DNA of 64,000 nt from Candidatus Yanofskybacteria bacterium RIFCSPHIGHO2_01_FULL_41_26 (lineage in GTDB: Bacteria; Patescibacteriota; Minisyncoccia; 2-02-FULL-40-12; GWA2-44-9), in NCBI GenBank assembly GCA_001794055.1, contig MGJB01000017.1, forward strand, positions 21,339-85,338, given 5' to 3'. Below the pieces are notes generated by a model that saw only the letters and a list, made by a program, of their open reading frames with translations, did no database searches and was not told where the DNA came from. Shown in pieces: positions 4,836 through 62,309 of this stretch; within the stretch, counting starts at the first letter, position 1, and every line of letters begins with the position of its first letter. The position numbers were made by a program, and so were the translations under genes.

Positions 4836-6584
4836 TTACTGCACTACCCCTTCTCCTGAACGATCGACAAGATCGTTGCTAGAAATATCCCGGACAGGAA
4901 CAATTATATTCTGTTTGGTAAAAGTATCCACCCCTGAAAGTTTGGAATCTTTTACTAGAAAGACTGGGCTTCCTGTTTGGCTGGTTGACGGATTTATACT
5001 TATCTGAAAACTTGCCTCATATTTAGATCCGGTCACGCCAACTCCTTGCGGTAAAACTCCGGGATTCCAAGCCACTTCGGAAATATTTTTATTGAATGTC
5101 GGTTCCGGCTGTCCCGAACCGACACTTACAATGCTTCTCCAATTTACGCCCGCTGACAATAAGCCGGTTATTTTAACTCCGCTCATATCATTTCCAGGGT
5201 TGGTAATCTGCCAATGAATCGTAAAAGAGGTCTCCTTTCCAACTTCCGGCGGCAAAGGGCCGGACGAACCAAAAGCTGTATCATTATAGTAAGCCGTCTG
5301 TTTTAGCGTCGGCTGAGTAGATATTTTAGTAACCAGATTGGATTCCGCAAAAATTTCATCCCCACCAATGTCGGACGGCACATTCGGAGTACTTAATCTT
5401 GTTGAAGCCCTAACAAAAAGATTTTTGGAACCGGTTGAGCCAGAAGGAATACCGTCCTTAAGCTTAATCCTGAAAGATACCTGCCCCTTTTTGTTGGGAG
5501 ACAGATTTGCAAAATCCGATATCGTGCTTGCGTTCCATAAAATTGTACCATTTGAACTGTCGTAATAACCGCCTTTCGTATCTAAGCTTGAAATGTCATA
5601 CATGTCCCCTTCCAATTTGATTAGCAAGTTTACTCCAATAAGATTGTAGTTGGAACTATTGAAATATTTGATTGTATAATTTAAATCATCGCCGGCAAAA
5701 GCAGAGTAATCAGAAGAATCGTTTACCGAGATCGCCGTACCCAATAAAGCATTGGCAACAACTGATGAAGTTTCGGATTTTTCATAATCAATATATTGAT
5801 CGCCTATTTTTCTTTTTAAAGCTACGGAGATATTTTTTGTTTCTCCTTCTTTTCCATTCAAAAGTCCGCTAATGCTTATCCTTCCGCCGTTACCCTTTTT
5901 GAGAACAGGAATGACCCAAACATAATTTTCCGTGTTTGGCGAAGGAGATGATTTCTGAACACTAAACCCATCAGGATACTTAAACTCAAATCTCAAATCA
6001 TAAATATCACCGTTGGACTCGTTTCTGTAATCCAACACATAACTGATCGCTTGGCCGGGAACTGAATTAGGAGGAGCAGATAAAGTGAGAGACACCGGCA
6101 GACTAATCATCGTGGTAGAGAGAGAAGCAGTCTTTTCAAAAACAGTTTTTAAACTTCCCGCCCCAAAAGACAGATCAATTTTTGCTGTTTTGATATTTCC
6201 CCTGTTGCCCACCAAAAAAGCGGTGAAATCTTTTTCTCCGGACTGACCAACGGCCAACTGGTCTAAAGTGAATATTTCTGAAAATGTATCTTTTCCGTCT
6301 AAGACAGGCCCGCCTCCAGATGGCAAAACAACCGAACCGTCAGGATAAGTAAACTTGAAACTAAGGCTGTTCAGGTTCAGCTTGGTGGTATTTGAATACT
6401 TAACCTTATAAACAACCTCGTCTCCCACAGACGCCTGGGTCGGACCTTCTATTTCCAGTTTGACCCCGGATTCAGAAAAAGACGGGCTTCCAAACCAAAA
6501 CGAAAGGAAACTGACGATAGCCAGCAACAAAGCCAGTAAGATCAGCCATTTCAAAAGTTTATTGTGTGAATATAAAAATTCCAT
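4836..6584 (-). CDS. large membrane-anchored surface protein with repeated beta-rich domains (DUF11/CARDB-like)
   Basis: 582 aa with N-terminal TM/signal. Ser/Thr/Asn/Gly-rich repetitive Ig-like segments. Confidence 0.55.
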   Translation of the reverse strand: MEFLYSHNKLLKWLILLALLLAIVSFLSFWFGSPSFSESGVKLEIEGPTQASVGDEVVYKVKYSNTTKLNLNSLSFKFTYPDGSVVLPSGGGPVLDGKDTFSEIFTLDQLAVGQSGEKDFTAFLVGNRGNIKTAKIDLSFGAGSLKTVFEKTASLSTTMISLPVSLTLSAPPNSVPGQAISYVLDYRNESNGDIYDLRFEFKYPDGFSVQKSSPSPNTENYVWVIPVLKKGNGGRISISGLLNGKEGETKNISVALKRKIGDQYIDYEKSETSSVVANALLGTAISVNDSSDYSAFAGDDLNYTIKYFNSSNYNLIGVNLLIKLEGDMYDISSLDTKGGYYDSSNGTILWNASTISDFANLSPNKKGQVSFRIKLKDGIPSGSTGSKNLFVRASTRLSTPNVPSDIGGDEIFAESNLVTKISTQPTLKQTAYYNDTAFGSSGPLPPEVGKETSFTIHWQITNPGNDMSGVKITGLLSAGVNWRSIVSVGSGQPEPTFNKNISEVAWNPGVLPQGVGVTGSKYEASFQISINPSTSQTGSPVFLVKDSKLSGVDTFTKQNIIVPVRDISSNDLVDRSGEGVVQ

Positions 6585-6594
6585 CTGCTCAATC

Positions 6595-7197
6595 TTATCT
6601 TAACACAGAATGGAGAAAATTTAATGACTTTAATCTAAATCCGGCGTTGTATTCAAAAGCGTCATCCAGCATTGTAAATCCGGGCCGAGTTGCGTCAAAA
6701 GAAGCTGAAGCGGCAATTTCGGGAGAATACCCGAGCAATCCCAGCAAAGCAAACTGTTTTTGTCTTAAAAAAGTTAAGCTCGGCTCAAACCGGTTTAACT
6801 TATCAAACAGACCGGTCATAAAATTCCAAAGTTTTTCATCTTTATCCATTTCGGGAACCATCTTATCAATCACTTCGGAGAAAAAACTCGCAACCGCCAA
6901 AGAAAGAATCGAGCTTTTCAAATCCCGGTATGAATTCTCCGACTGGGCTCCGGCAATTACCGGCAAGGACCGCCCTTGTATAAGATCAAACTCCACAAGG
7001 TTTAAGGTATCTAAATGCATGGCTTGAATAGAACTGTGTTTTAAAATACTTTTAGCAATGGCGGTAAGCTTCCCAAGTTCCTGTGTATAGCAAGTCACGA
7101 ACTGATCGAATTCGTTGGTGTTTTGCTTTTTTATAATTATCGCCTTAATCAGCATTTGATATTTGAAACTTTGATATATTGACAGTTTTGCCGCCAT
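6595..7197 (-). CDS. recO: DNA repair protein RecO-like
   Basis: 200 aa. N-terminal OB-fold-like region and C-terminal helical region resemble short RecO. Confidence 0.5.
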   Translation of the reverse strand: MAAKLSIYQSFKYQMLIKAIIIKKQNTNEFDQFVTCYTQELGKLTAIAKSILKHSSIQAMHLDTLNLVEFDLIQGRSLPVIAGAQSENSYRDLKSSILSLAVASFFSEVIDKMVPEMDKDEKLWNFMTGLFDKLNRFEPSLTFLRQKQFALLGLLGYSPEIAASASFDATRPGFTMLDDAFEYNAGFRLKSLNFLHSVLR

Positions 7198-7329
7198 TTA
7201 CTAATATTATACTGGCATTAAACACTTTTCTGGAGGTTTGAAATGAATGCACTTCGCCTCTTGTTCCTTGCAATTTTGACACTCCTGTCATTGCCGTTCC
7301 TCCCTCGTGAATAGCTACATTCAGCAACT

Positions 7330-7482
7330 ATGAAAATTTTTGGTGTTGGTGTTTACACGCCAAACGATGTGGGTATCATGATGCTCCTGGGATTATTCGG
7401 AGTAATAGGGGTCATGGTCATAAACTCAGTAATCTGGGCACTTTTTATCGAACCAGTTTGTTTGCGATTGCGAAAGTAAACT
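7330..7482 (+). CDS. possible small hydrophobic peptide (50 aa)
   Basis: ATG at 7330. MKIFGVGVYTPNDVGIMMLLGLFGVIGVMVINSVIWALFIEP has a single TM helix. Below ORF-track size cutoff and no clear SD. Confidence 0.2.
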
Positions 7483-7559
7483 CATCGTCCGGAACCGTTT
7501 AGCGGCTCCTTTTTTATTCCGCTCTTCAGTTTGTTTAATTTTTTGTTCTAAATTATCCA

Positions 7560-12410: not shown

Positions 12411-12860
12411 ATGATAAGCTGTCAGATAAATATGAAAAAAACTATTTCGTTTTTAATATTAATCTTTATAATAAACCTGATCGGTTTATACAACCAATGG
12501 TATTTGATTTATCCCTGGTTTGACCAAGTTTTACATTTTTCAGGTGGATTTTTAATGGCCATACTTCTCTCGATATATTTAAAAAACCATCTTCTTGAAA
12601 ATGCTAAATTAAAAAACATCCTGATAGTTTTAGGCGCAGTTTCGTTTATAGGAATAACTTGGGAATTCGCTGAATACTTGGCCAGCCAAATCCTTGTTGA
12701 ATCAATTTATAGAAATTTCGGTATAAGAACTTATTTTATAGGCGACTTAAATGATACGATAAATGATCTGCTAATGGACATCCTCGGAGCTGGATTATTT
12801 TTATTTGTCTTACATTTTTTCAGGAATCGAAAGACCCATAAGATTCAAACAAATCCTTAG
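12411..12860 (+). CDS. multi-pass membrane protein (possibly VanZ-like)
   Basis: 149 aa with 4 predicted TM helices. Divergent from ileS. Confidence 0.4.
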   Translation: MISCQINMKKTISFLILIFIINLIGLYNQWYLIYPWFDQVLHFSGGFLMAILLSIYLKNHLLENAKLKNILIVLGAVSFIGITWEFAEYLASQILVESIYRNFGIRTYFIGDLNDTINDLLMDILGAGLFLFVLHFFRNRKTHKIQTNP

Positions 12861-14420
12861 AACCGTGTGCACTCCTTGAGCGAGCAGGAGACGGGCCGAT
12901 TGAAGTTCCGTGTCATTCTCCTGAATTACATGGTGCTTCTCATAGAACTTATGAAAATCTCCGGCGAGATTCAAAGTATACTGACCGAGATTATGAACCT
13001 GATAGTTTTCTGCGACGCCTTCAACAACTTCCGGAAACCTAACAAGATCTTTCAGTAATCGCAGTTCCTCTTTTTCTTTCAATAAATCAAGGTCGTTGGT
13101 CGTTGGTTGTTGGTTGTTGGTTGTTTTAGCAAAAATACTATTCAATCGCGAATGGGCATATTGAATATAGAAAACCGGGTTTTCTTTTGACTGTTTTTTT
13201 GCCAGTTCTATATCGAACTCCATGTGAGTATTCAAATCCCTGGAAAGGAAGAAAAACCTAATGGCATCTTTCCCGATCTCGGACAGCAAGTCGTCCATCA
13301 AAATAAACCGGCCCGTTCTTTTGGACATTTTTTGGATTTCACCGTCTTCTTTGATTGAAACTAATTGATGGAGAAGTATCTCCAGACGGTCGGGATCATA
13401 TCCTAGAGCCGCAACGCCCGTTTTTAATCTGACAACATCTCCATGGTGATCTGCTCCCCAAATATTTATTGTGCTTGTAAATCCCCTTCCAAATTTATTC
13501 TTGGTATAAGCAATGTCGTTCAACAAATAAGTCGTTGAGCCATCACTTTTTACTAAAACAGCTTTTTGCTCATTATTTATTTTTAACCACTTGGCTCCGT
13601 CTTCTTCAATTACAAATCCCTTCGATTCCAATTCGGCAAGAGCCGCTTCAACTTCTCCGCTTTCATGAAGTTTTGATTCAAAAAACCATTCATCAAATTC
13701 AACTCCCATTTTTTTTGAGGAATTTTTGGCTTTATCGATCATGGCATTAATCGCCCACGCCCGAACATGGCCCTCGGGTATCTTCTTATCCAAAAATTCT
13801 TGGGCCATCTCTTTAATATACTCGCCCTGATACATTTCCGAACCAAATTCCACCTTTTCACCTTTCAATTCTTTCATCCTTAACTTCACTGACTCAACAA
13901 GTTTATCCACTTGGTTGCCAACATCATTGATATAATACTCTTTGGTCACTTGATATCCTGTTTTTTCTAAAATATTGCCGAGTGTATCGCCGAATGAAGC
14001 TGCCCGAGCATTGCCGACCGTTAGCGGCCCAGTCGGATTGGCAGAGACGAATTCAAGATTTATCTTGACTCCTTTACCTGGCTCAGAATTACCAAATTTT
14101 TCTCCTCTTTCTACAACCTCAACTAACGAGTTCCTTAAATAATCTTCGCTTAGATAGAAATTAATGAACCCCGGCGGAACAAGCTGGATTTTTCTTAATT
14201 TTTTGCCCAATTCTTTATCGCCTAAAAGTTCTTCCACCAAGTCCTTTCCTGCTTCTATTGGGCTTATTCCTTTTTTCTTTGCCAAAACAAAAGCAAGATT
14301 AGTCGAATAGTCTCCCAACATATCTTCAGAAGGCATCAAAATATCGAACCCTACCCCTGGAATTCTGTCCGAAATTTCTTTTCTTAGCCACTTTTTTATC
14401 ATATCGTTTAAGTTTATCAA
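12810..14420 (-). CDS. argS: arginyl-tRNA synthetase
   Basis: 536 aa. N-terminal Arg_tRNA_synt_N-like region, SANPTGPLTVGNAR class I motif and C-terminal DALR-like domain. Confidence 0.9.
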   Translation of the reverse strand: MINLNDMIKKWLRKEISDRIPGVGFDILMPSEDMLGDYSTNLAFVLAKKKGISPIEAGKDLVEELLGDKELGKKLRKIQLVPPGFINFYLSEDYLRNSLVEVVERGEKFGNSEPGKGVKINLEFVSANPTGPLTVGNARAASFGDTLGNILEKTGYQVTKEYYINDVGNQVDKLVESVKLRMKELKGEKVEFGSEMYQGEYIKEMAQEFLDKKIPEGHVRAWAINAMIDKAKNSSKKMGVEFDEWFFESKLHESGEVEAALAELESKGFVIEEDGAKWLKINNEQKAVLVKSDGSTTYLLNDIAYTKNKFGRGFTSTINIWGADHHGDVVRLKTGVAALGYDPDRLEILLHQLVSIKEDGEIQKMSKRTGRFILMDDLLSEIGKDAIRFFFLSRDLNTHMEFDIELAKKQSKENPVFYIQYAHSRLNSIFAKTTNNQQPTTNDLDLLKEKEELRLLKDLVRFPEVVEGVAENYQVHNLGQYTLNLAGDFHKFYEKHHVIQENDTELQSARLLLAQGVHTVLRICLNLMGLSIPEKM

Positions 14421-49559: not shown

Positions 49560-50318
49560 ATGGAGACCGAGCAGACTGAACAGATCTTTGAAGAAACTAC
49601 CACCGAGGAGACTCGGAAGCTAATCCTCACTATTTCTACTATTGCCTTTGATTTCGATTTCGTTACTTCTGACCCATCAAGGTCACGGGCTGACGAAATC
49701 AAGGTTTTATTGGTAAAGAACAAGAAACCTTCCCGCAAAAGCAAAGAAGGTAAGCCGGGTGGGTTTGGACTCCCAACAGGACAAGTAGAGAGCCGTGAAG
49801 CGATACTTCATGCTGTCGAAAGAGAAACCGAGGACGAGTCTGGCTGTTCGGTGAAGAAAATAATCGGCAAACTTTTTGTGATCAAAAAGACCTTAAAGAT
49901 ACCCGGGAAGGAGAATCCGGAAAACCTTCCGAACCATCTTAATTATGAGTCCGTCCCCAACGAGATTCATGTTTTTCTTGTCGAGGCTTCCGAGCCACTA
50001 AGACGGATAAGAGAGGCTGATGAAATCGACGGCTCCGTCGAGCCGTGGAAACCTCTTCGGGAAGTATTTGAAATGCCTCTTGCTCAGGACCGGAGTGGAA
50101 GCAGGAAAAATAGCGACGGCATTTATTTTAGCCACATCAAAAGACTATATACGGCCATTGAGTCGATGATTTACAACCCCGAAGAAGAGCTAGTCGATGG
50201 TGAGGCCATCAAGCGATGGCTTGAGCCTAATCGTCAGGCTCTATACTCGGCAATGTCTGATCTTAGAAAGTCTGGTCTTCTGGAAAACTTTATTACTCCT
50301 GACGAAGCTCAGGAATAA
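49560..50318 (+). CDS. NUDIX hydrolase domain protein
   Basis: 252 aa. GQVESREAILHAVERETEDESG fits the Nudix box GX5EX7REUXEEXGU. Confidence 0.7.
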   Translation: METEQTEQIFEETTTEETRKLILTISTIAFDFDFVTSDPSRSRADEIKVLLVKNKKPSRKSKEGKPGGFGLPTGQVESREAILHAVERETEDESGCSVKKIIGKLFVIKKTLKIPGKENPENLPNHLNYESVPNEIHVFLVEASEPLRRIREADEIDGSVEPWKPLREVFEMPLAQDRSGSRKNSDGIYFSHIKRLYTAIESMIYNPEEELVDGEAIKRWLEPNRQALYSAMSDLRKSGLLENFITPDEAQE

Positions 50319-50351
50319 TAAATACCAGATTTAATTACACACGCGCCCCGC

Positions 50352-50382
50352 AATGGGGCGCTATTTTATTTTTCGAAGGACC
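50352..50382 (+). terminator. rho-independent terminator
   Basis: GCGCCCC-gcaat-GGGGCGC + TATTTTATTTTT. Confidence 0.55.
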
Positions 50383-50456
50383 CAATTAACAATACTCCCC
50401 CCTACAAATAACTCTGTTGAAAAATATTAAAACTTCGGGTATACTCAATCCTAATC

Positions 50457-52280
50457 ATGATCAAACAATTCACAAAATATATTTCAATAGTTTTCTTAAT
50501 CCTGCTTAGCGCAGCTGGTTTAGTTATGGTTTTTCAGTCCCCTTTTGAAAAAGTTGACAGTGTTTCTGTCTCAGAAATAGTAACCAAAATAAATGCCGGC
50601 CAAGTTAAAGACATAACAGTCAAAGGAGATAATCTGGAAATCGTCCTAAAAGATGGTGACAAGAAATTAACATCTCAAAAAGAGTCGGGTATTTCAGCTT
50701 TTGAAACATTGCTGAACTTAGGAACAAATAAAGACAAGCTCTCAGCTTTTAATATTCAAGTTAAAGACGAAACTGGAACAGTGGGTATGATATTGTCTTC
50801 TGTTATTCCAGTCGTTTTACCATTTCTTTTGATAGTTTTAATTTTCTGGTACATGTTTAATAAGGCTCAAAAGGGATCGATGCAAGCCTTTTCTTTCGGC
50901 AAATCTAAGGCCCGTTTGGCCAACCAGAAAAACGGAAAAAAGCAGGTTACCTTCAAAGATGTTGCCGGACTAATTGAGGCCAAGGAAGAAATATCAGAAG
51001 TTGTAGAATTCTTGAAAGACCCGAAGAAATTTCACAAACTTGGAGCCAAAATACCAAGAGGTATTTTATTAGTTGGTTCTCCGGGAACAGGAAAAACACT
51101 TTTAGCTAAAGCAGTTGCCAGCGAAGCCCATGTTCCATTTTATTTCGTTTCCGGTTCAGAATTCGTCGAAATGTTCGTTGGTGTCGGCGCCAACAGGGTC
51201 AGGGACATGTTTGAGCTAGCAAAGAAAACTGCTCCGGCAATTGTATTTATCGATGAAATAGATGCCGTAGGCAGACACCGCGGAGCTGGTCTTGGAGGCG
51301 GACATGACGAAAGAGAACAAACCTTGAACCAAATTTTGGTTGAAATGGACGGTTTTGATACTGATGCCGCCGTAATTGTAATAGCCGCGACCAACCGACC
51401 TGATATTCTTGATCCGGCTCTTTTAAGACCCGGCCGTTTTGACAGACGGATAATTTTAGATGAACCCTCAATGAAAGATCGAGAAGATATTTTAAAAATC
51501 CATGCCTTGGGTAAACCCTTGGCAAAAATGGTAAACCTTAAACTTGTTGCCGAAAGAACTCCGGGATTATCGGGGGCAGATTTGGCAAATTTAATAAATG
51601 AAGCCGCCATTCTTGCCGCAAGAAATAACCAAAAAGAAATTACACAGGATAATCTTTTTGAGGCAATTGAAAAGGTAATCTTGGGACCAGAAAGACGCAG
51701 CCACATATTTTCCAAAAAAGAAAAAGAGATAACCGCCTACCACGAAGCTGGACATGCATTGGTGTCCTTCTCGCTCCCCTTCACAGATCCGATCCACAAG
51801 GTTTCAATCGTTTCACGCGGAAGAGCGGGAGGATACACGCTCAAATTACCAACCGAAGACAAACATCTTCGATCCCGCTCTGAATTTGAGTCAGAATTAG
51901 CTGTTTTACTCGGAGGATTTGCGGCTGAAAAAATGATATTCAAAGATACTACCACCGGCGCTTCAAATGACTTGAGGGTTGCGTCCGATCTTGCCCGTCG
52001 GATGATTACCCAATATGGAATGTCCGATGTCCTCGGCCCAATAACTTTCGGTGAAAAAGAAGAACTGGTTTTTTTGGGAAAAGAAATTTCAAGCAATAAA
52101 AACTACTCCGAAACAATTGCGTTTCAGATTGATGAGGAAATTAAAAAACTGATATCAAAAGGATTAGTTTCCGCCAAAAAAGTTCTTACTCAAAAGATGG
52201 CAGTCCTCCACAAAATCGCCAAAGAATTAATCAGCAAAGAAACTCTGGAACAAAAAGATTTTTACACGTTGGTGAGGTAA
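50457..52280 (+). CDS. ftsH: ATP-dependent zinc metalloprotease FtsH
   Basis: 607 aa. N-terminal TMs. Walker [19 protein letters not shown] zinc motif. Confidence 0.9.
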
Positions 52281-52572
52281 GGCCAGCTCAACCCCGCCCA
52301 TTTTAGGCCTATTGGATTGCGGCCTCCGGCCTTCTTCGGACAAATGCTTAAATTAATCTCAATTTGCTTAACAAATTTTAGCGTCCGTTCCTCTCTTCGG
52401 GATTTTCCGGCTAAAATTTGTTTATTAAGCAAATTATTAGTTAATTTAAGCATTGTGTTGCCCTCGAAACCAAACGGTCTGAAAATAGGCGGGGTTGTCG
52501 CCCCACAAGAGACAGGAGTCAAACTCTGGAATAAAATTCTTAAAAAGCGTAAGATAATACTTAGTTTTCTTT

Positions 52573-52647
52573 GGGCGTGTAGCTCAGTGGTAGAGCACGG
52601 TACTTATAATACCGGGGTCGGAGGCTCGATCCCTCCCACGCCCACCA
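52573..52647 (+). tRNA. tRNA with anticodon TAT (Ile, AUA-reading)
   Basis: Manual fold: GGGCGTG/CACGCCC acceptor, anticodon stem CGGTA/TACCG, loop CTTATAA, T-arm GGAGGCTCGATCCCTCC, CCA encoded. Confidence 0.7.
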
Positions 52648-54130
52648 TAATAAAACTAGACGACTTTTTTGAAGTCAATTGATGGGCGGCACGAAGTGCC
52701 GCCCATTGATTTTCCCCTGACAAATCCTCTCCGCTCGGCGCGCGCAGCCGCGCCTCGCGGTTGGCCAAAACGAGGTTCGAGCCGAAAAGTTTTTCGGCAG
52801 CAACCTTTTTCTCAAAAAGGTTGCTCTCTTGTGCGATTTTAGGCAGAGATTCTGCCTCTTTTATCCATTCCGACATCGGTTCGAGCCAGCCAGTCCGCTT
52901 TTGTTCAAAGTTGATGATTTGCTCCTCCAGCGACTTTTTCTCGCTCATAAAGTTTCGTTTCTTTTCGAGATAAGTTTCTCGTTCAATGTCCTGTTCCAAA
53001 TAGCCATCTAAAAGTCGCTGGAGTTTAACAGTGATAATTTTTACTTTAGTTTCCGATTCTTGAACAAAAGCGGTTGCGGATTGGGCGGATTCCTTTTTGT
53101 CTTTTTCAAGTATTTTATTCATCTGTTCCGCCCAATCCGGTCTCAAAGAAAATTTTTGAAGCAGAGAGGATAACTGCCGATCCAGTTCTTCCTCGCGGAC
53201 ATAAGGTTGGCTACACTGTATGTTTTTCTTGGTGCAACGATAGTAAGTATGACCTTTTTGGATTTCGGCAGTTATCATTCTTCCGCATTCTTCACAACGC
53301 AATAAATTAGTGAAGGGTTTAGCGATTTTAGGATTACCCTTTGGTTTTCCTCTCTGCTTCATTACCTCTCGGACTTTATCAAAAATTTTCTTTGAGACTA
53401 CTGGCTGGTGCTTGCCTTCATACACCTCACCCGCATAACGAAAATGTCCATAGTAAAATGGATTGGAGAGGATAAAAGAAATTCTGTCTCGGTGAAGTTT
53501 CTTGCCGCCAGAGGAGAGAATACCATGTTGCGCCAAAAAGTTTACAATATCTTCCAAACGAGAGCTGTTTTGTCCATATAGCTCAAAGGCCTTGCGAATA
53601 ATAACTGATTTCTTTTTGTCCACAACGATTGATTTAGTACGAACATCGTTTAGATAACCAACTGGCGCAAGGCCGGGATATTCTCCTCGTCTGACTTTTT
53701 GGCGCAACCCTCGTTTGGTATTCTCACTCAAATTGTCCACATAGTATTTGCTTTGCCCAAAAGCGATATTGAGCATGAACTTACCTTGGGCGGTATTTTC
53801 ATACCAAAACTGTGGAAACTTCAGGCCCGCAAGTCCACCTGTGTCCAAAAGATAAATAATCTTTCCACCATCAACAGAATTGCGCGCCAGTCTGTCAGGA
53901 TGCCAAGCCAAAATTCCGTTTGCTTCACCGCGCTCGATGCGAGCAAACATTTCGTTAAAAATCGGTCTGCCAGGAATTTTGGCCGACTGCTTTTCCACCA
54001 ACTCCTCCACTATCTCCAAATTTTCACGCTTGGCAAACTCGCGCAATTCTGTGAGTTGCGCTTCAATCGAGAGGACTTGCTTATCCTCAACATCTGTGGA
54101 TTTGCGGGCATACAAAAAGAATTTTTGCAT
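52604..54130 (-). CDS. large serine recombinase (resolvase/invertase N-domain + recombinase + zinc-ribbon + coiled coil)
   Basis: 508 aa. N-terminal YARKSTDVEDKQVLSIEAQ (catalytic Ser). RLARN motif. C-terminal CxxC...CxxC. The 3' end overlaps the tRNA 3' end. Confidence 0.85.
   Translation of the reverse strand: MQKFFLYARKSTDVEDKQVLSIEAQLTELREFAKRENLEIVEELVEKQSAKIPGRPIFNEMFARIERGEANGILAWHPDRLARNSVDGGKIIYLLDTGGLAGLKFPQFWYENTAQGKFMLNIAFGQSKYYVDNLSENTKRGLRQKVRRGEYPGLAPVGYLNDVRTKSIVVDKKKSVIIRKAFELYGQNSSRLEDIVNFLAQHGILSSGGKKLHRDRISFILSNPFYYGHFRYAGEVYEGKHQPVVSKKIFDKVREVMKQRGKPKGNPKIAKPFTNLLRCEECGRMITAEIQKGHTYYRCTKKNIQCSQPYVREEELDRQLSSLLQKFSLRPDWAEQMNKILEKDKKESAQSATAFVQESETKVKIITVKLQRLLDGYLEQDIERETYLEKKRNFMSEKKSLEEQIINFEQKRTGWLEPMSEWIKEAESLPKIAQESNLFEKKVAAEKLFGSNLVLANREARLRAPSGEDLSGENQWAALRAAHQLTSKKSSSFIMVGVGGIEPPTPVL
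52645..52779. repeat. inverted repeat X, left copy (about 135 bp, GC-rich)
   Basis: Reverse complement matches 54335-54472 with 3 mismatches. Begins within tRNA 3' end. Contains GGGCGGCAC-gaa-GTGCCGCCC palindrome. Confidence 0.8.
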
Positions 54131-54334
54131 AAAATTATTGGTTAAAACTTAAATAGCCGCCCTTGGTGCGACAAACCCAATTGCTCGGATTTATTTCCAA
54201 AGACGGCTATTAAAAAAGCAATTGGCCCGTTTGTCGCAAATTCAGTATACCATTTCCAAAAAGAAAGCAAAAATTCTTTTTGTATATTTTGGGCAAAACA
54301 ATTCACCGAGACAGAATTTAAAATCGCACAAGAG

Positions 54335-54472
54335 CGAACCTCGTTTTGGCCAACCGCGAGGCGCGCCTGCGCGCGCCGAGCGGAGAGGATTTGTCAGGGG
54401 AAAATCAATGGGCGGCACTTCGTGCCGCCCATTGATTGACTTCAAAAAAGTCGTCTAGTTTTATTATGGTGT
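54335..54472. repeat. inverted repeat X, right copy
   Basis: Reverse complement of 52645-52779. Its 16 bp palindrome is perfect here (AATCAATGGGCGGCAC / GTGCCGCCCATTGATT). Confidence 0.8.
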
Positions 54473-54648
54473 GGCTTTACAACCAAGCTCGAAGTTATTT
54501 TAGCAGAAATTTGTAAAAACGGATAGAGTGCCGCGCTACGCGCGGCCTAACGCTTCTGAAATGCGCTCGGACGGGGCGGGAAGAAAAAGGGGTGTAGGGA
54601 AAATGAATTCCCGCCCTGTCCTCGCTATTTTCGCCGCCGCCAATTTCG
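54469..54648. repeat. inverted repeat Y, left copy (180 bp)
   Basis: Perfect reverse-complement match to 56162-56341. ORF-track pairs 54528..54758(+) and 55980..56282(-) give identical peptides because of this repeat. Confidence 0.85.
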
Positions 54649-54772
54649 TATTTCGCAAAGCGAAATACGCCGCAAGAAACAATTTTGGTATTGCCCTTGC
54701 CCCTCCCGCCCATGCGCGGGCAATATCTTTTGAGCTCCCAATTAAGTTAAAAATCTGATAAAATAAAAACAT

Positions 54773-55681
54773 ATGGCAAATTTTTATCAGCATAAAAACT
54801 ATAGTTTCCAAGATTTTGACCTCTTGGTTGATGATGGGGTTATTTATGCTTGTTATATCAAAAAGGCACCTCGCCTAATAGGCGAACATGACTCCCGCCA
54901 GCCCAATATTTATGCAATGGCAAAAAGCAAGGATAGTGTGAATTGGGAAGAAGTCGGAGATATTATTTTGCCCGTTCCAAATTCTTGGGAAGAAAGTATT
55001 TGGGCTGGCGGGATTTCCAAACAAAATGACAAATACGTTATTTACTACACCGGCACAACCATGAAAGGACGCAACGATTTTTGCAAAATAGGCAAAGCAT
55101 ATTCTGAAGACCTCGCTCATTGGGAAAAAGATTTAGAAAATCCAGTTTTTATTTTTGATTCACAAAGTCCTTACTACTCTGATGAGAAAAAATTGGCCTT
55201 TCGCGACCCTTTCTTTTTTGAACACGAGGGTAGAAAGTATATCCTTTTCTGTGCAAAAGATAAAAAACAACCAGCAGGAAAACAAGGATGTATCGGTGTA
55301 GCTGAAGAAACAGAACAAAATAAATTTTGTTGGATGCCGCCAATTTTTTCTCCCGGAATATATTTTGATGGATTAGAATGTCCTGCACTCTATAAAATCA
55401 AGGATAAATGGTATCTACTTTATGGGATTGACATGGAGAATGACGAAAAGGCATTCCGATATGCTGTAGCAGACTCCCCATTCGGGCCATATAAAACTTT
55501 TAAGGATAATCAGCTCTTATCAAGCAATAACTATACTTGCCGAATTATAAATTTTGGAGGTAAAAATTTGCTTTATCATTGGTTTAGAGATAATCAGAAT
55601 GGCAAGACGCGTGAGCGTCTTGCGCCTCCGAAAGGGGTGCACATTTTAGAAGACGGCAGAATTTCACTTTCGGAAATATAA
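54773..55681 (+). CDS. GH32-like (clan GH-J beta-fructosidase-like) five-bladed beta-propeller glycoside hydrolase
   Basis: 302 aa. FRDPFFF (RDP motif) and GLECPALY (EC motif) of GH32/GH68. N-terminal nucleophile motif not clearly seen. Confidence 0.5.
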   Translation: MANFYQHKNYSFQDFDLLVDDGVIYACYIKKAPRLIGEHDSRQPNIYAMAKSKDSVNWEEVGDIILPVPNSWEESIWAGGISKQNDKYVIYYTGTTMKGRNDFCKIGKAYSEDLAHWEKDLENPVFIFDSQSPYYSDEKKLAFRDPFFFEHEGRKYILFCAKDKKQPAGKQGCIGVAEETEQNKFCWMPPIFSPGIYFDGLECPALYKIKDKWYLLYGIDMENDEKAFRYAVADSPFGPYKTFKDNQLLSSNNYTCRIINFGGKNLLYHWFRDNQNGKTRERLAPPKGVHILEDGRISLSEI

Positions 55682-55690
55682 ACGCAAGAT

Positions 55691-56122
55691 ATGTTAATGG
55701 TTAAAACAAAAATTGGGTCGAGCAAAATTCATGGCGTAGGTGTATTCGCTGATGAGTTTATTCCGAAAGGGACAGTGATTTGGAAATTTACGCCTGGATT
55801 TGACATTTTGAGTTTTCCTGATCTTTTACAAATCTACATCTACAAATATTCGTGGAAAAGCAAGAAGAGCAAGCTATATTGTTTTTCTTCCGACAATGGG
55901 AAGTATTTTAATCACTCAAAAAATTCAAATACCATTTCGGAACACAGAGATGGTGAAGAAGAAGTTACCACAACAGCAGTTAAGGATATTCAAATCGGTG
56001 AGGAACTAACTGATAATTATTCATCATTTGAGGCAGACAGTGATGACAAAAACGTCTTAGAGGAAATTGCCAAAAAATATGCTCTTGTTGATGAGTTAGA
56101 TCCTCGTCTAAAGAAACATTGA
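55691..56122 (+). CDS. SET-domain protein (putative lysine methyltransferase)
   Basis: 143 aa. FNHSKNSN (NHSxxPN-like) and EELTDNY (ELxxDY) SET signatures. Confidence 0.6.
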   Translation: MLMVKTKIGSSKIHGVGVFADEFIPKGTVIWKFTPGFDILSFPDLLQIYIYKYSWKSKKSKLYCFSSDNGKYFNHSKNSNTISEHRDGEEEVTTTAVKDIQIGEELTDNYSSFEADSDDKNVLEEIAKKYALVDELDPRLKKH

Positions 56123-56161
56123 AATAAAATTTTTCTTTGCGGCGTGCCAGTTTTACCGGCG

Positions 56162-56341
56162 CGAAATTGGCGGCGGCGAAAATAGCGAGGACAGGGCGGG
56201 AATTCATTTTCCCTACACCCCTTTTTCTTCCCGCCCCGTCCGAGCGCATTTCAGAAGCGTTAGGCCGCGCGTAGCGCGGCACTCTATCCGTTTTTACAAA
56301 TTTCTGCTAAAATAACTTCGAGCTTGGTTGTAAAGCCACAC
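56162..56341. repeat. inverted repeat Y, right copy (180 bp)
   Basis: Perfect reverse complement of 54469-54648. Ends 12 nt before tRNA-Val. Confidence 0.85.
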
Positions 56342-56353
56342 AAGATTTATCAT

Positions 56354-56430
56354 GCGCGCTTAGCTCAGTTGGTTAGAGCGACTCGTTTACACCGAGTAGG
56401 TCGTGGGTTCGAATCCTACAGCGCGCACCA
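56354..56430 (+). tRNA. tRNA-Val (anticodon TAC)
   Basis: GCGCGCT/AGCGCGC acceptor, anticodon loop TTTACAC, T-arm GGGTTCGAATCC, CCA encoded. Confidence 0.85.
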
Positions 56431-57332: not shown

Positions 57333-58046
57333 GTGGTACTACTTTGTTATCAACACATGCGAAAAGATCAAGAAAAAGCGTTTGGGTTGCGTCGTCAAAA
57401 GCAAAGCTATAAAACCATCAGCAAAGAGCTTGGCATTCCTAAAAGCACTCTTGCTGGCTGGTTTAAAAATGAGTTGTGGTCACAAGATATTAGAGATGAG
57501 TTGGGTCGAACCGCATCACTAGCTTTTCCTGAAAAATTAAACCGCATCGTTGCGGCTAATAAAAAACGGTGGGCCGATTGGCATCAACAAGCTCGAGATG
57601 AGGCTGTGGTAGAATTTCCGAAACTTAAAGACGACTCCCTATTTTTAGCGGGACTCATGCTCTATTGGGGAGAGGGTAACAAAACACCAACAAGTCCTCA
57701 AGTAAAATTAGCCAACAGCGACCCCGCCATGATTCGCCTTTTTTGTCTCTTCTTGAAAAAAACTCTCTTGGTGCCAGATGAAAAAATAAAGATTTGGCTA
57801 CTTCTTTATCCTGATCTTATTGATTCTGTTCAGAAAAATTTCTGGAGCAAAGCCACAGGCATACCTCTTACGCAATTTAACAAGTCTATTTACATTAAAG
57901 GAAGACGCTCGACAAGAAGACTATCATATGGAGTATGTAATGTAACAGTTTCAAGCCGACAATTAAAAGAAAAAATCGTTAAATGGATCGAGCTTTTTCA
58001 GTTAAACTTACAAGAATCCGCTTTCTTGAAAAAAACTTTAAAATAA
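57333..58046 (+). CDS. HTH + single LAGLIDADG-like motif protein (homing-endonuclease-like)
   Basis: 237 aa. N-terminal HTH (YKTISKELGIPKSTLAGWFKN). FLAGLMLYWGEGNK resembles a LAGLIDADG motif. Confidence 0.4.
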   Translation: MVLLCYQHMRKDQEKAFGLRRQKQSYKTISKELGIPKSTLAGWFKNELWSQDIRDELGRTASLAFPEKLNRIVAANKKRWADWHQQARDEAVVEFPKLKDDSLFLAGLMLYWGEGNKTPTSPQVKLANSDPAMIRLFCLFLKKTLLVPDEKIKIWLLLYPDLIDSVQKNFWSKATGIPLTQFNKSIYIKGRRSTRRLSYGVCNVTVSSRQLKEKIVKWIELFQLNLQESAFLKKTLK

Positions 58047-62080: not shown

Positions 62081-62309
62081 GTTTGAGGCCTACTTATAGT
62101 GGGATTGTCAAACTATTGACAATCTGGTTAAATTAGTGTATAATACAATCATGGTCTACTGTCGACTGCGTGTCGCTTGTGACATCAAAAGTTACCCTTA
62201 GGGGTAACTCCACTTCTTTATTATAATAAAGAAATAATTCGCCACAAGAGGATATCGGGTCGACGGTTAAAATATAAAAGCGCCTTAAGGCGCTTTTATA
62301 TTTTAACCA

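Follow-up and report, generated by a model that had tools for sequence, protein, structure and literature searches.

A 3.7 kb tRNA-associated element of Candidatus Yanofskybacteria with a large serine recombinase and an attachment site apparently present twice

Introduction

In a contig of Candidatus Yanofskybacteria bacterium RIFCSPHIGHO2_01_FULL_41_26 (GCA_001794055.1), a gene for a large serine recombinase and a pair of cargo genes stand between a tRNA-Ile and a tRNA-Val gene, and each of these two segments is enclosed by its own pair of long, almost perfect inverted repeats (IRs). What the repeats are, and whether the segments they bound make up a mobile element, an invertible device or something else, is the question that this locus raises. 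Positions below are those of the window, the whole stretch of 64,000 nt that was analysed (MGJB01000017.1, positions 21,339–85,338, forward strand), and L numbers designate the contigs and loci compared with it. We suggest that 52643–56341 is an integrated mobile element of 3.7 kb, mobilised by a large serine recombinase of its own, and that the repeats are its attachment site (attP) present twice, a reading to which we give a probability of about 60%. Judged by its sequence, the element is a tRNA-associated integrative island. Bacteria of the candidate phyla radiation have tiny genomes and few recognised mobile elements, and the interest of the locus is that it belongs to a widespread family with an unexplained design feature, an internal attP.

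Layout of the locus

The two repeat pairs, X/X' and Y/Y', bound units of 1829 bp and 1873 bp, respectively (Table 1). The layout and coordinates given in an earlier note on this DNA held in ARAGORN and in a repeat search, with small corrections only. The X pair does differ at three positions (52680, 52681 and 52748), but is 137 nt long and 98% identical rather than 135 bp long, and Y and Y' are identical over 180 nt as described. The pairs had been said to abut and do meet at the place indicated, where they in fact overlap by the 3 nt GTG (54469–54471). X begins inside the 3' end of the tRNA gene, its first 5 nt (CACCA) being the last 5 nt of tRNA-Ile(UAU). The repeats are rich in GC compared with the window (40.8%), though at 55.5% for X and 52.2% for Y they fall short of the 60% or so first estimated. 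Test patterns for both repeats gave 0 matches in 100 shuffles, and an Rfam search of the arms returned no known RNA family either at gathering thresholds or at E ≤ 1.

The organism is present in many public assemblies, and four contigs from other samples together reproduce the layout over all three junctions. L011 (55 kb) runs from the tRNA through X, the recombinase and X' into Y; L001 (41 kb) and L005 run from the recombinase through X', Y, the cargo and Y' into the flank; and L007 covers X' to tRNA-Val. Other contigs end at the repeats, at distances resembling assembler word length. The cargo has the opposite orientation relative to both flanks in two of the nine contigs that cross its boundaries (L006/L021 and L009), with the X' alleles kept at the junction. 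This argues for inversion only faintly, since the two orientations do not differ in any word shorter than 180 nt and an assembler can make the join. In the contigs from other samples the X and X' alleles always matched their own copy, so there is no sign of flipping of the recombinase segment in this population. The alternate orientations that the earlier note had proposed to look for are seen for the cargo, where assembler ambiguity is possible, and not for the recombinase segment of this population.

Table 1. Features of the locus, in window coordinates
Feature	Position	Strand	Basis
tRNA-Ile(UAU), putative integration target	52573–52647	+	ARAGORN; Rfam 69.3 bits
Large serine recombinase, 508 amino acids (aa)	52604–54130	−	Pfam Resolvase PF00239 (7.9e-22), Recombinase PF07508 (1.3e-14), Zn_ribbon_recom PF13408 (8.1e-10)
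IR-X (P arm, predicted to lie now in attL)	52643–52779	+	repeat search; family alignment; conserved C-terminal tail
J1 core CAC, probable attL crossover region	52643–52645	+	junction comparison
9-bp GC hairpin (GGGCGGCAC-GAA-GTGCCGCCC) then ATTGATTTT	52684–52704	+	alignment folding
Recombinase 5' region: candidate TGnTATACT-type promoter and long hairpin in the 5' untranslated region (5'-UTR)	54131–54334	−	inferred from sequence and the homologous regions of L109 and L111
IR-X', inverted P-arm copy	54335–54471	+	repeat search
J2 core GTG	54469–54471	+	junction comparison
IR-Y, probable Q arm of attP, inverted orientation	54469–54648	+	repeat search
Cargo gene 1, probable GH43/GH32/GH68-type (glycoside hydrolase) beta-propeller glycosidase	54773–55681	+	profile scores
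Cargo gene 2, SET-domain protein	55691–56122	+	1.6e-13
IR-Y', probable Q' arm of attP, predicted to lie now in attR	56162–56341	+	repeat search
J3 core CAC, probable attR crossover region	56339–56341	+	junction comparison
Right flank (B'): 12-nt spacer and tRNA-Val(UAC)	56342–56430	+	sequence, ARAGORN
tRNA-Val(UAC)	56354–56430	+	ARAGORN

Junctions and attachment sites

The repeats make sense once the three junctions are read in the same direction. In the direction of the tRNA, J1 reads ...cacgcc CAC cataataaaact..., the reverse complement of J2 reads ...gtaaagcca CAC cataataaaact..., and J3 reads ...gtaaagcca CAC aagatttatcat-tRNA-Val. All three have only CAC in common, which corresponds to tRNA positions 72–74. 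With J2 taken in reverse complement, its right arm is also found in J1 and its left arm in J3. A core of 3–9 nt is shared at this place in 14 further loci where both repeat pairs are present. The attP that recombination between J1 and J3 (excision) would form is, in reverse complement, exactly X'|Y. Going by these sequences, tRNA|X behaves as attL, Y'|flank as attR and X'|Y as an intact, inverted attP. Because J1 and J3 hold one split copy and J2 an intact inverted one, IR-X would be the P arm twice over and IR-Y the Q arm twice over. The view that these are not ordinary direct att repeats is borne out, as both the core and the arms are inverted at J2. The notion of a single element bounded by terminal inverted repeats (TIRs), also raised in the earlier note, is not: the sequences at the outer ends, X and Y', have nothing in common, and the core is inverted at J2.

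In loci where the sequence following J3 does not start with CA, identity ends after position 74, which would place the crossover within positions 72–74. Removal of 52646–56341 leaves tRNA-Ile, 12 nt and tRNA-Val. A comparable pair without the element is found in a distant genome of the Saccharibacteria (L045), where tRNA-Ile(tat) is followed by 16 nt and tRNA-Val(tac), and the tRNA-Ile ends ...cgcccaCtg with no encoded CCA. A comparison with relatives lacking the insertion had been suggested; the element-free tRNA-Ile/tRNA-Val pair does exist, but was seen only in this one distant genome.

The two sides of the proposed reaction share a motif. The T-arm and the 3' strand of the acceptor stem of tRNA-Ile form the left (B) half of the predicted target site attB, and the T-loop motif GCTCGA starts 19 nt before position 72. 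On the element side, Y' has TTCGAGC at 56317–56323, 23 nt before the core, and Y has TTCGAGC-N6-GTAAAGCCAC on the minus strand at 54471–54493.

Relatives in the Patescibacteria

Relatives of the recombinase are encoded in at least 513 loci in a scan of one genome per species, and we examined the anatomy of the family in the best 80 of these (58–89% identical). Patescibacteria are named in nearly all the record titles of the loci, and Delta- or Gammaproteobacteria in a few, which we suspect to be binning labels. Database relatives of the protein number in the thousands; the best 120 are 62–100% identical, most of them 66–90%, and their source names include Doudna-, Harrison-, Moran-, Pace- and Staskawiczbacteria and Parcubacteria.

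Wherever enough sequence was present, the recombinase lies between inverted repeats of 135–147 nt, and in most of the 80 loci it is convergent, at its 3' end, with a tRNA gene (Tyr, Leu, Val, Lys, Gly, Arg, Ile, Met, Glu, Thr or Phe); the overlap of the repeat with the tRNA is mostly 5 nt. In the 15 loci with enough upstream sequence, X' is abutted by a second repeat pair, of 83–360 nt, which encloses 1.2–4.5 kb of cargo. A Q' arm precedes X' in about 45 loci, including some without a Y' partner within 6 kb, and among the roughly 45 loci that could be evaluated no recombinase unit lacked an adjoining Q arm. Several of the loci are on contigs of 200–600 kb and many others are at contig ends, which fits the repeats breaking assemblies; because of these repeats, assemblies of such genomes often break beside tRNA genes.

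Mobility is indicated by elements that are 82–89% identical in DNA and stand at tRNAs Val-CAC, Gly-TCC, Lys-TTT and Arg-GCG, in bins labelled as different phyla and with different cargo. These share only the outer 45–55 nt of Q', together with X', the recombinase and X, while the inner part of Y and the cargo differ. Finding the same machinery at different chromosomal sites with different cargo is what marks a mobile island. Of the invertible or mobilisable module first proposed, a mobile element driven by a serine recombinase is supported, and inversion is plausible, with fainter indications discussed below.

Cargo gene 1 had been called GH32-like. It is by its profile scores a five-bladed propeller glycosidase of uncertain family, with GH43 scoring best (4e-20), then GH32N (6.5e-15) and then GH68. 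The SET-domain gene was correctly recognised. The two had been thought unusual cargo, a view we do not share, as the load varies from element to element. Other members carry a HaeII-type restriction system with Vsr, LemA/DUF2207/RDD membrane proteins, a GT2 glycosyltransferase, an inositol monophosphatase, a large surface protein, an ABC transporter with NMT1 and a methyltransferase, or a radical SAM enzyme with a sulfotransferase and an aldo-keto reductase. It appears that bacteria of the candidate phyla radiation commonly acquire restriction systems, surface proteins, transporters and sugar-active enzymes through this family.

The family also extends the junction logic. In about 45 loci the Q' arm upstream of X' reads TTTTTGATAAAATA-aGTTCGAGC-N6-GTAAAGACA, followed by the core. 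Of 43 Q' arms, 33 have the start of the GTTCGAGC motif 23 nt before position 72, and of 34 target tRNAs, 28 have the start of their T-loop motif 19 nt before that position, so the motif lies 4 bp further out in attP than in attB. LI integrase has a comparable shift of 5 bp, its zinc-ribbon motif lying at bp 16–24 in attP and bp 11–19 in attB (PMC3783163). The attP core equals positions 72–73 of the target tRNA in all 38 loci scored: CA in 20, CT in eight (all Gly or Thr tRNAs) and TA in five (all Arg or Glu). That so many tRNAs are targeted would follow from the recognised motif being carried by every tRNA gene.

Two loci hold additional features. In L046, a tRNA-Ala(tgc) gene lies inside the recombinase segment between X' and the start of the recombinase (5871–5943), and a second, unrelated large serine recombinase (24% identical) occupies 2–1309. 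L072 has two family members 5 kb apart (6001–7551 and 12735–13550), convergent and at tRNA-Arg(tcg) and tRNA-Gly(tcc).

The recombinase gene

The motifs Y7-A-R-K-S11 (with R9 and S11) and D79-R-L-A-R83 are invariant in an alignment of 18 sequences, as are C279, C282, C299 and C306. PDB matches are to the A118 and SPbeta integrases, and residues 193–355 align to the A118 integrase structures 4kis and 6dnw. Taking the sequence and the site logic together, we classify the enzyme as a large serine integrase. No close relative was found in viral contigs, phage records or plasmid records, the best being 29% identical.

The open reading frame (ORF) of the recombinase has no stop codon inside the element. 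It runs through all of X, which encodes the last ~45 codons on the minus strand and is stop-free in this coding copy, and then 44 nt into the tRNA gene in antisense. X' copies are free of stops in the recombinase frame in 44 of 45 cases; the X' of the window has an in-frame TGA where X has CAA (a TG/CA difference). Across the family the ORF ends 9–470 nt past J1, within the antisense strand of the tRNA, in nearly every scorable locus, the exceptions (e.g., L049, L050 and L063) being loci where the ORF is disrupted. Part of the conserved tail (NQWAALRAAH) is the translated hairpin of the P arm.

The last residues of the ORF vary with the sequence beyond the core, so the tail can be used for a census of orientation. 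Among the 120 best homologues, 93 end in the translated T-arm (G-I/V-E-P), 13 end in the translated Q arm (Y-L-Y-N-x-A-R-T-Y-F) and 14 could not be classified. The opposite context is therefore seen in 13 of 106 classifiable recombinases (~12%), which are scattered among lineages. Contigs for three of the 13 differ in what they show: L111 is an integrated copy with the recombinase segment flipped (tRNA-Leu, X, recombinase, X', Q), in L110 Q arms lie on both sides of the recombinase, and in L109 both contig ends are within the second repeat copy. L049, L060 and L075 are further flipped copies. L047 has a third X copy with a decayed recombinase 3' end before it and Y' after it, a junction that by its sequence is as expected in a circle or a tandem copy. 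These copies hint at inversion of the recombinase segment, which we consider plausible.

Upstream of the recombinase is a TTTTTGCTATACT motif, similar to the TGnTAAAAT of the Q' arm described below. Between this promoter-like motif and the start codon, a ~17-bp hairpin (gcgacaaacccaattgc ... gcaattggcccgtttgtcgc) lies at 54150–54240 on the minus strand, and equivalent hairpins are present in L109 and L111. This 5'-UTR hairpin may be a regulatory structure.

Contents of the arms

At J1 the P arm supplies the CCA end of the tRNA and places its hairpin directly downstream, in the direction of the tRNA. The hairpin lies ~41 nt after the core and is followed by ATTGnTTTT, with compensatory changes in six of nine pairs across 20 loci. 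In the Q' arm a conserved TGnTAAAAT faces the core and lies ~10 nt ahead of the GTTCGAGC motif. In the window, Y' has GC hairpins and an outward-facing TGCTAAAAT that resembles an extended −10 motif (56305–56313), and at J3 this promoter-like motif faces the displaced downstream genes, here tRNA-Val only 12 nt away. The arm hairpin would act as a terminator and TGnTAAAAT as a promoter, which together would limit the damage of an insertion in a tRNA operon.

Proposed mechanism of integration

We propose that the 3' end of a tRNA gene serves as attB and that the recombinase joins it to attP (Q' arm, core, P arm), with the crossover within the three core positions. On the tRNA side the enzyme would most likely read the universal T-loop sequence (GTTCGA), and on the element side the same motif 4 bp further out, while the core would have to match position 72 and the discriminator of the target tRNA. 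Recognition of the T-loop motif combined with a core match would explain why close relatives are found at many different tRNAs. After insertion, the P arm would give the tRNA its CCA end and a terminator-like hairpin, and the Q' arm would aim its promoter-like motif at the displaced genes. Integration would split one attP copy, its halves ending up in attL (tRNA|X) and attR (Y'|flank), and the second copy would stay intact and inverted between the recombinase and cargo segments (X'|Y). The long inverted repeats would thus exist because the element carries attP twice.

The free form is likely a circle made of a recombinase segment (1555 bp), a cargo segment (1513 bp) and two inverted Y'-X units of ~317 bp, each containing a full attP. 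Each segment would come to exist in both orientations through integration at either attP or through a later exchange between arms. Gene conversion between the arms would keep them alike and let the inner boundary of Y drift, which fits the 83–360 nt range of Y in the family, and the boundary of X would be pinned between the coding sequence and the upstream region of the recombinase.

Several points weigh against this reading. The motif shift is 4 bp and not the 5 bp of LI integrase, and the right half of attB, 3' of the tRNA, has no evident conservation across the family. A promoter and a terminator are suggested by sequence conservation in the family and by covariation, and simple promoter and terminator scans called neither the conserved hairpin nor the TGnTAAAAT motif. 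The contigs of this organism show only the integrated state, with no circle junction and no empty attB among them. Two metagenome pattern scans for the junctions (flank, and X versus X' alleles) came back empty in a collection that evidently does not hold these contigs, and no closed circular contig, as judged by terminal overlaps, was found among the small loci that make up whole contigs. The recombinase segment is in the tRNA-convergent orientation in a ratio of ~88:12, where a symmetric circle with two attP sites predicts about equal use of both, a bias that would require selection or some asymmetry. Canonical large serine recombinases are not known to recombine attP with attP, attL or attR, and their excision needs a directionality factor; we noticed no conserved candidate gene for such a factor in the element.

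The purpose of the internal attP invites several ideas. It could be the second site of a flip-flop circle, a switch by which the recombinase gene is made to face the strongly transcribed tRNA or to point away from it, a fold-back site of single-stranded DNA (ssDNA) or an aid to excision in cis. We think it unlikely, but worth stating, that the life cycle depends on the internal inverted attP and the near-perfect arms, which would then be more than a by-product, in one of two ways. A transferred single strand might fold into a ready double-stranded attP and promoter, a counterpart of integron attC or the attP of CTX phage; or the internal attP might bring attL and attR together in cis and so replace a directionality factor. 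If true, either version would amount to a form of mobility control new to serine integrases, coupled to a generic tRNA-end target matched at the discriminator.

Alternative explanations

A resident phase-variation device is one alternative, in which the recombinase would flip one or both of the segments to switch expression in the style of Hin/Gin/Cin or of multiple-inversion systems, with no mobility involved. Three sites in alternating orientation do bound two adjacent segments, one of which has the recombinase, and both the cargo-inverted contigs (L006/L021 and L009) and the 12% of relatives with the recombinase segment in the other context agree with flipping. The inverted contigs, however, cross a 180-nt repeat that short reads cannot resolve, and the same machinery stands at many tRNAs with unrelated cargo. 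Furthermore, the arms of each pair are equivalent, so that the junction sequences are unaffected by a flip, a promoter-like sequence of their own seems to lie upstream of the cargo genes, and the enzyme is a large recombinase of integrase type rather than a small invertase. We consider this explanation improbable.

Travel as ssDNA, already touched on as one possible role of the internal attP, can also be taken as an account of the repeats themselves. X would pair with X' and Y with Y', rebuilding a double-stranded attP and promoter on the incoming strand, which would resemble integron attC, the attP of CTX phage or the single-strand promoters of conjugative plasmids. The often perfect identity of the arms speaks for it, as does the fact that they contain exactly attP and the promoter-like TGnTAAAAT, and geometric reasoning indicates that in the folded tRNA-sense strand the template strand of the promoter would run into that of the recombinase. 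Nevertheless, there is no direct evidence for a single-stranded form, and a serine recombinase cuts both strands. A cross between a folded stem and attB would leave hairpin-capped chromosome ends that need replication and a second recombination to reach the observed product, which a double-stranded circle yields in one step. This explanation seems doubtful to us, to about the same degree as phase variation.

Still less likely are two independent TIR elements side by side, an insertion sequence-like recombinase unit (X...X') next to a passenger cassette (Y...Y'). Each unit does have near-perfect terminal repeats and the two are similar in size, but the core is inverted together with the arms (CAC at J1 and J3, GTG at J2), where a circle with palindromic arms would leave a core in direct repeat, and among about 45 evaluable loci of the family there is no recombinase unit without a Q arm beside X'. 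Separate recombinase and cargo circles with palindromic sites were considered as well and were rejected for the same reason, namely that their core would be a direct and not an inverted repeat. Finally, an artefact of assembly or amplification, by repeat collapse or a chimeric inverted join, might be suspected from the many contigs that break at the repeats, but is refuted by X and X' differing at three positions and by the recurrence of the layout in independent contigs from several samples with different assembler naming styles and in dozens of unrelated genome bins, including contigs of 200–600 kb, so the chance of it is negligible.

Comparison with known systems

Returning to the reading as an integrated element with attP present twice, close parallels are the large serine integrases of phages and integrative elements. 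The enzyme resembles those of A118/LI, phiC31, Bxb1 and SPbeta (SprA) in having resolvase, recombinase and zinc-ribbon domains and the catalytic Ser and Arg residues, and the sites resemble theirs in that attP is longer than attB, the outer motif is shifted outward in attP and the identical core is very short. In contrast, the enzyme is at most 29% identical to any phage or plasmid relative, the targets are generic tRNA 3' ends and not one specific locus, and the element keeps an intact inverted attP, has a recombinase ORF without its own stop and has no evident gene for a directionality factor.

In the shape of its proposed circle the element is more like the yeast 2-micron plasmid, where FLP acts on FRT sites in 599-bp inverted repeats: two segments, two target-bearing inverted repeats and the recombinase in one of the segments. 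FLP, however, is a tyrosine recombinase, and the 2-micron plasmid replicates and has equimolar isomers, whereas the element is found integrated, has no replication gene and has an orientation ratio of ~88:12. Tn4451 and Tn5397 are likewise small mobilisable elements with a large serine recombinase (TnpX and TndX) that presumably move via a circle. They have short imperfect end repeats with a directly repeated GA at both ends. The element differs in its repeats of 137–360 nt, its tRNA-end target and a core inverted with the arms; a joint of the Tn4451 type is excluded because the core trinucleotide is inverted together with the arms.

The invertases Hin, Gin, Cin and Pin and the Min system share with the element a serine recombinase next to or within repeat-bounded segments, and alternating sites that allow neighbouring segments to be inverted separately. 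They are small invertases acting with an enhancer and Fis at fixed loci and on specific genes, whereas the element is mobile, carries unrelated cargo and has a large enzyme. At 508 aa this enzyme is of integrase type and the locus varies, which sets it apart from Hin/Gin-type invertases, small enzymes with a C-terminal helix-turn-helix that act at a fixed locus and give both orientations within one population.

Islands at tRNA or transfer-messenger RNA (tmRNA) genes offer another comparison. The ssrA islands of Dehalococcoides and other tRNA-targeting islands also place accessory genes at the 3' end of such a gene, and those of Dehalococcoides reportedly use a serine recombinase as well. Islands of this kind leave direct repeats of the 3' end of the gene and have a single target gene. 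The element instead overlaps its target by only 3–5 nt, uses many tRNAs and has inverted repeats. An attachment site within the reading frame of the recombinase, so that integration alters the gene product, is known from the archaeal integrases of the SSV1 type. Those are tyrosine recombinases with attP inside the integrase gene, which integration splits; in the element, integration changes only the last 10–20 residues and the stop codon.

Compared with known islands, then, the element differs in its generic tRNA-end target selected by the discriminator, in an overlap of 3–5 nt in place of a duplicated tRNA end, in the retained inverted attP that gives rise to two long IR pairs, in a recombinase without its own stop and in its very small size. 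We found no description of such an element in the full-text literature, nor of a retained inverted attP or a recombinase stop codon supplied by the target; most subscription journals are outside that coverage and a prior description is possible. The enzyme may also be of practical interest, as it seems to recognise the universal T-loop sequence and the 3' end of a tRNA, and the 2–3 nt core matching the discriminator seems to choose the targets, which would be a simple natural retargeting of a serine integrase.

Other observations

The tRNA-Ile with anticodon UAU is encoded in the window and in L039, L045 and L053, and its T-loop reads CTCGATC compared with the usual TTCGAAT. Upstream of it, between ftsH and tRNA-Ile, the 218-nt sequence at 52283–52500 (plus strand) folds into one long rod-like hairpin (−85 kcal/mol, z = −8.8 compared with shuffles) and matches nothing in Rfam, even when the cut-off is relaxed to E ≤ 1. 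A miniature repeat element and a 6S-like RNA are both conceivable. In L014, a 98.9% relative, the apical stem of this hairpin is changed on both sides. The same contig (339–2871, matching window 49953–52478) has the ftsH block and the hairpin of a closely related strain in another context, with a different gene upstream and a GC-rich structured region with rpsT (S20) downstream, and with neither tRNA-Ile nor the element. The break between L014 and the window is at ~52478, at the foot of the hairpin.

Near the element, between tRNA-Phe and tRNA-Gly, an ORF of 237 aa (57333–58046) has weak helix-turn-helix matches, including one to that of the Sleeping Beauty transposase (E 0.0017, below the family cut-off), and might be a remnant of another mobile element. 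Lastly, a perfect palindrome of 44 nt lies at 62265–62308 and matched itself in reverse complement in every contig comparison.

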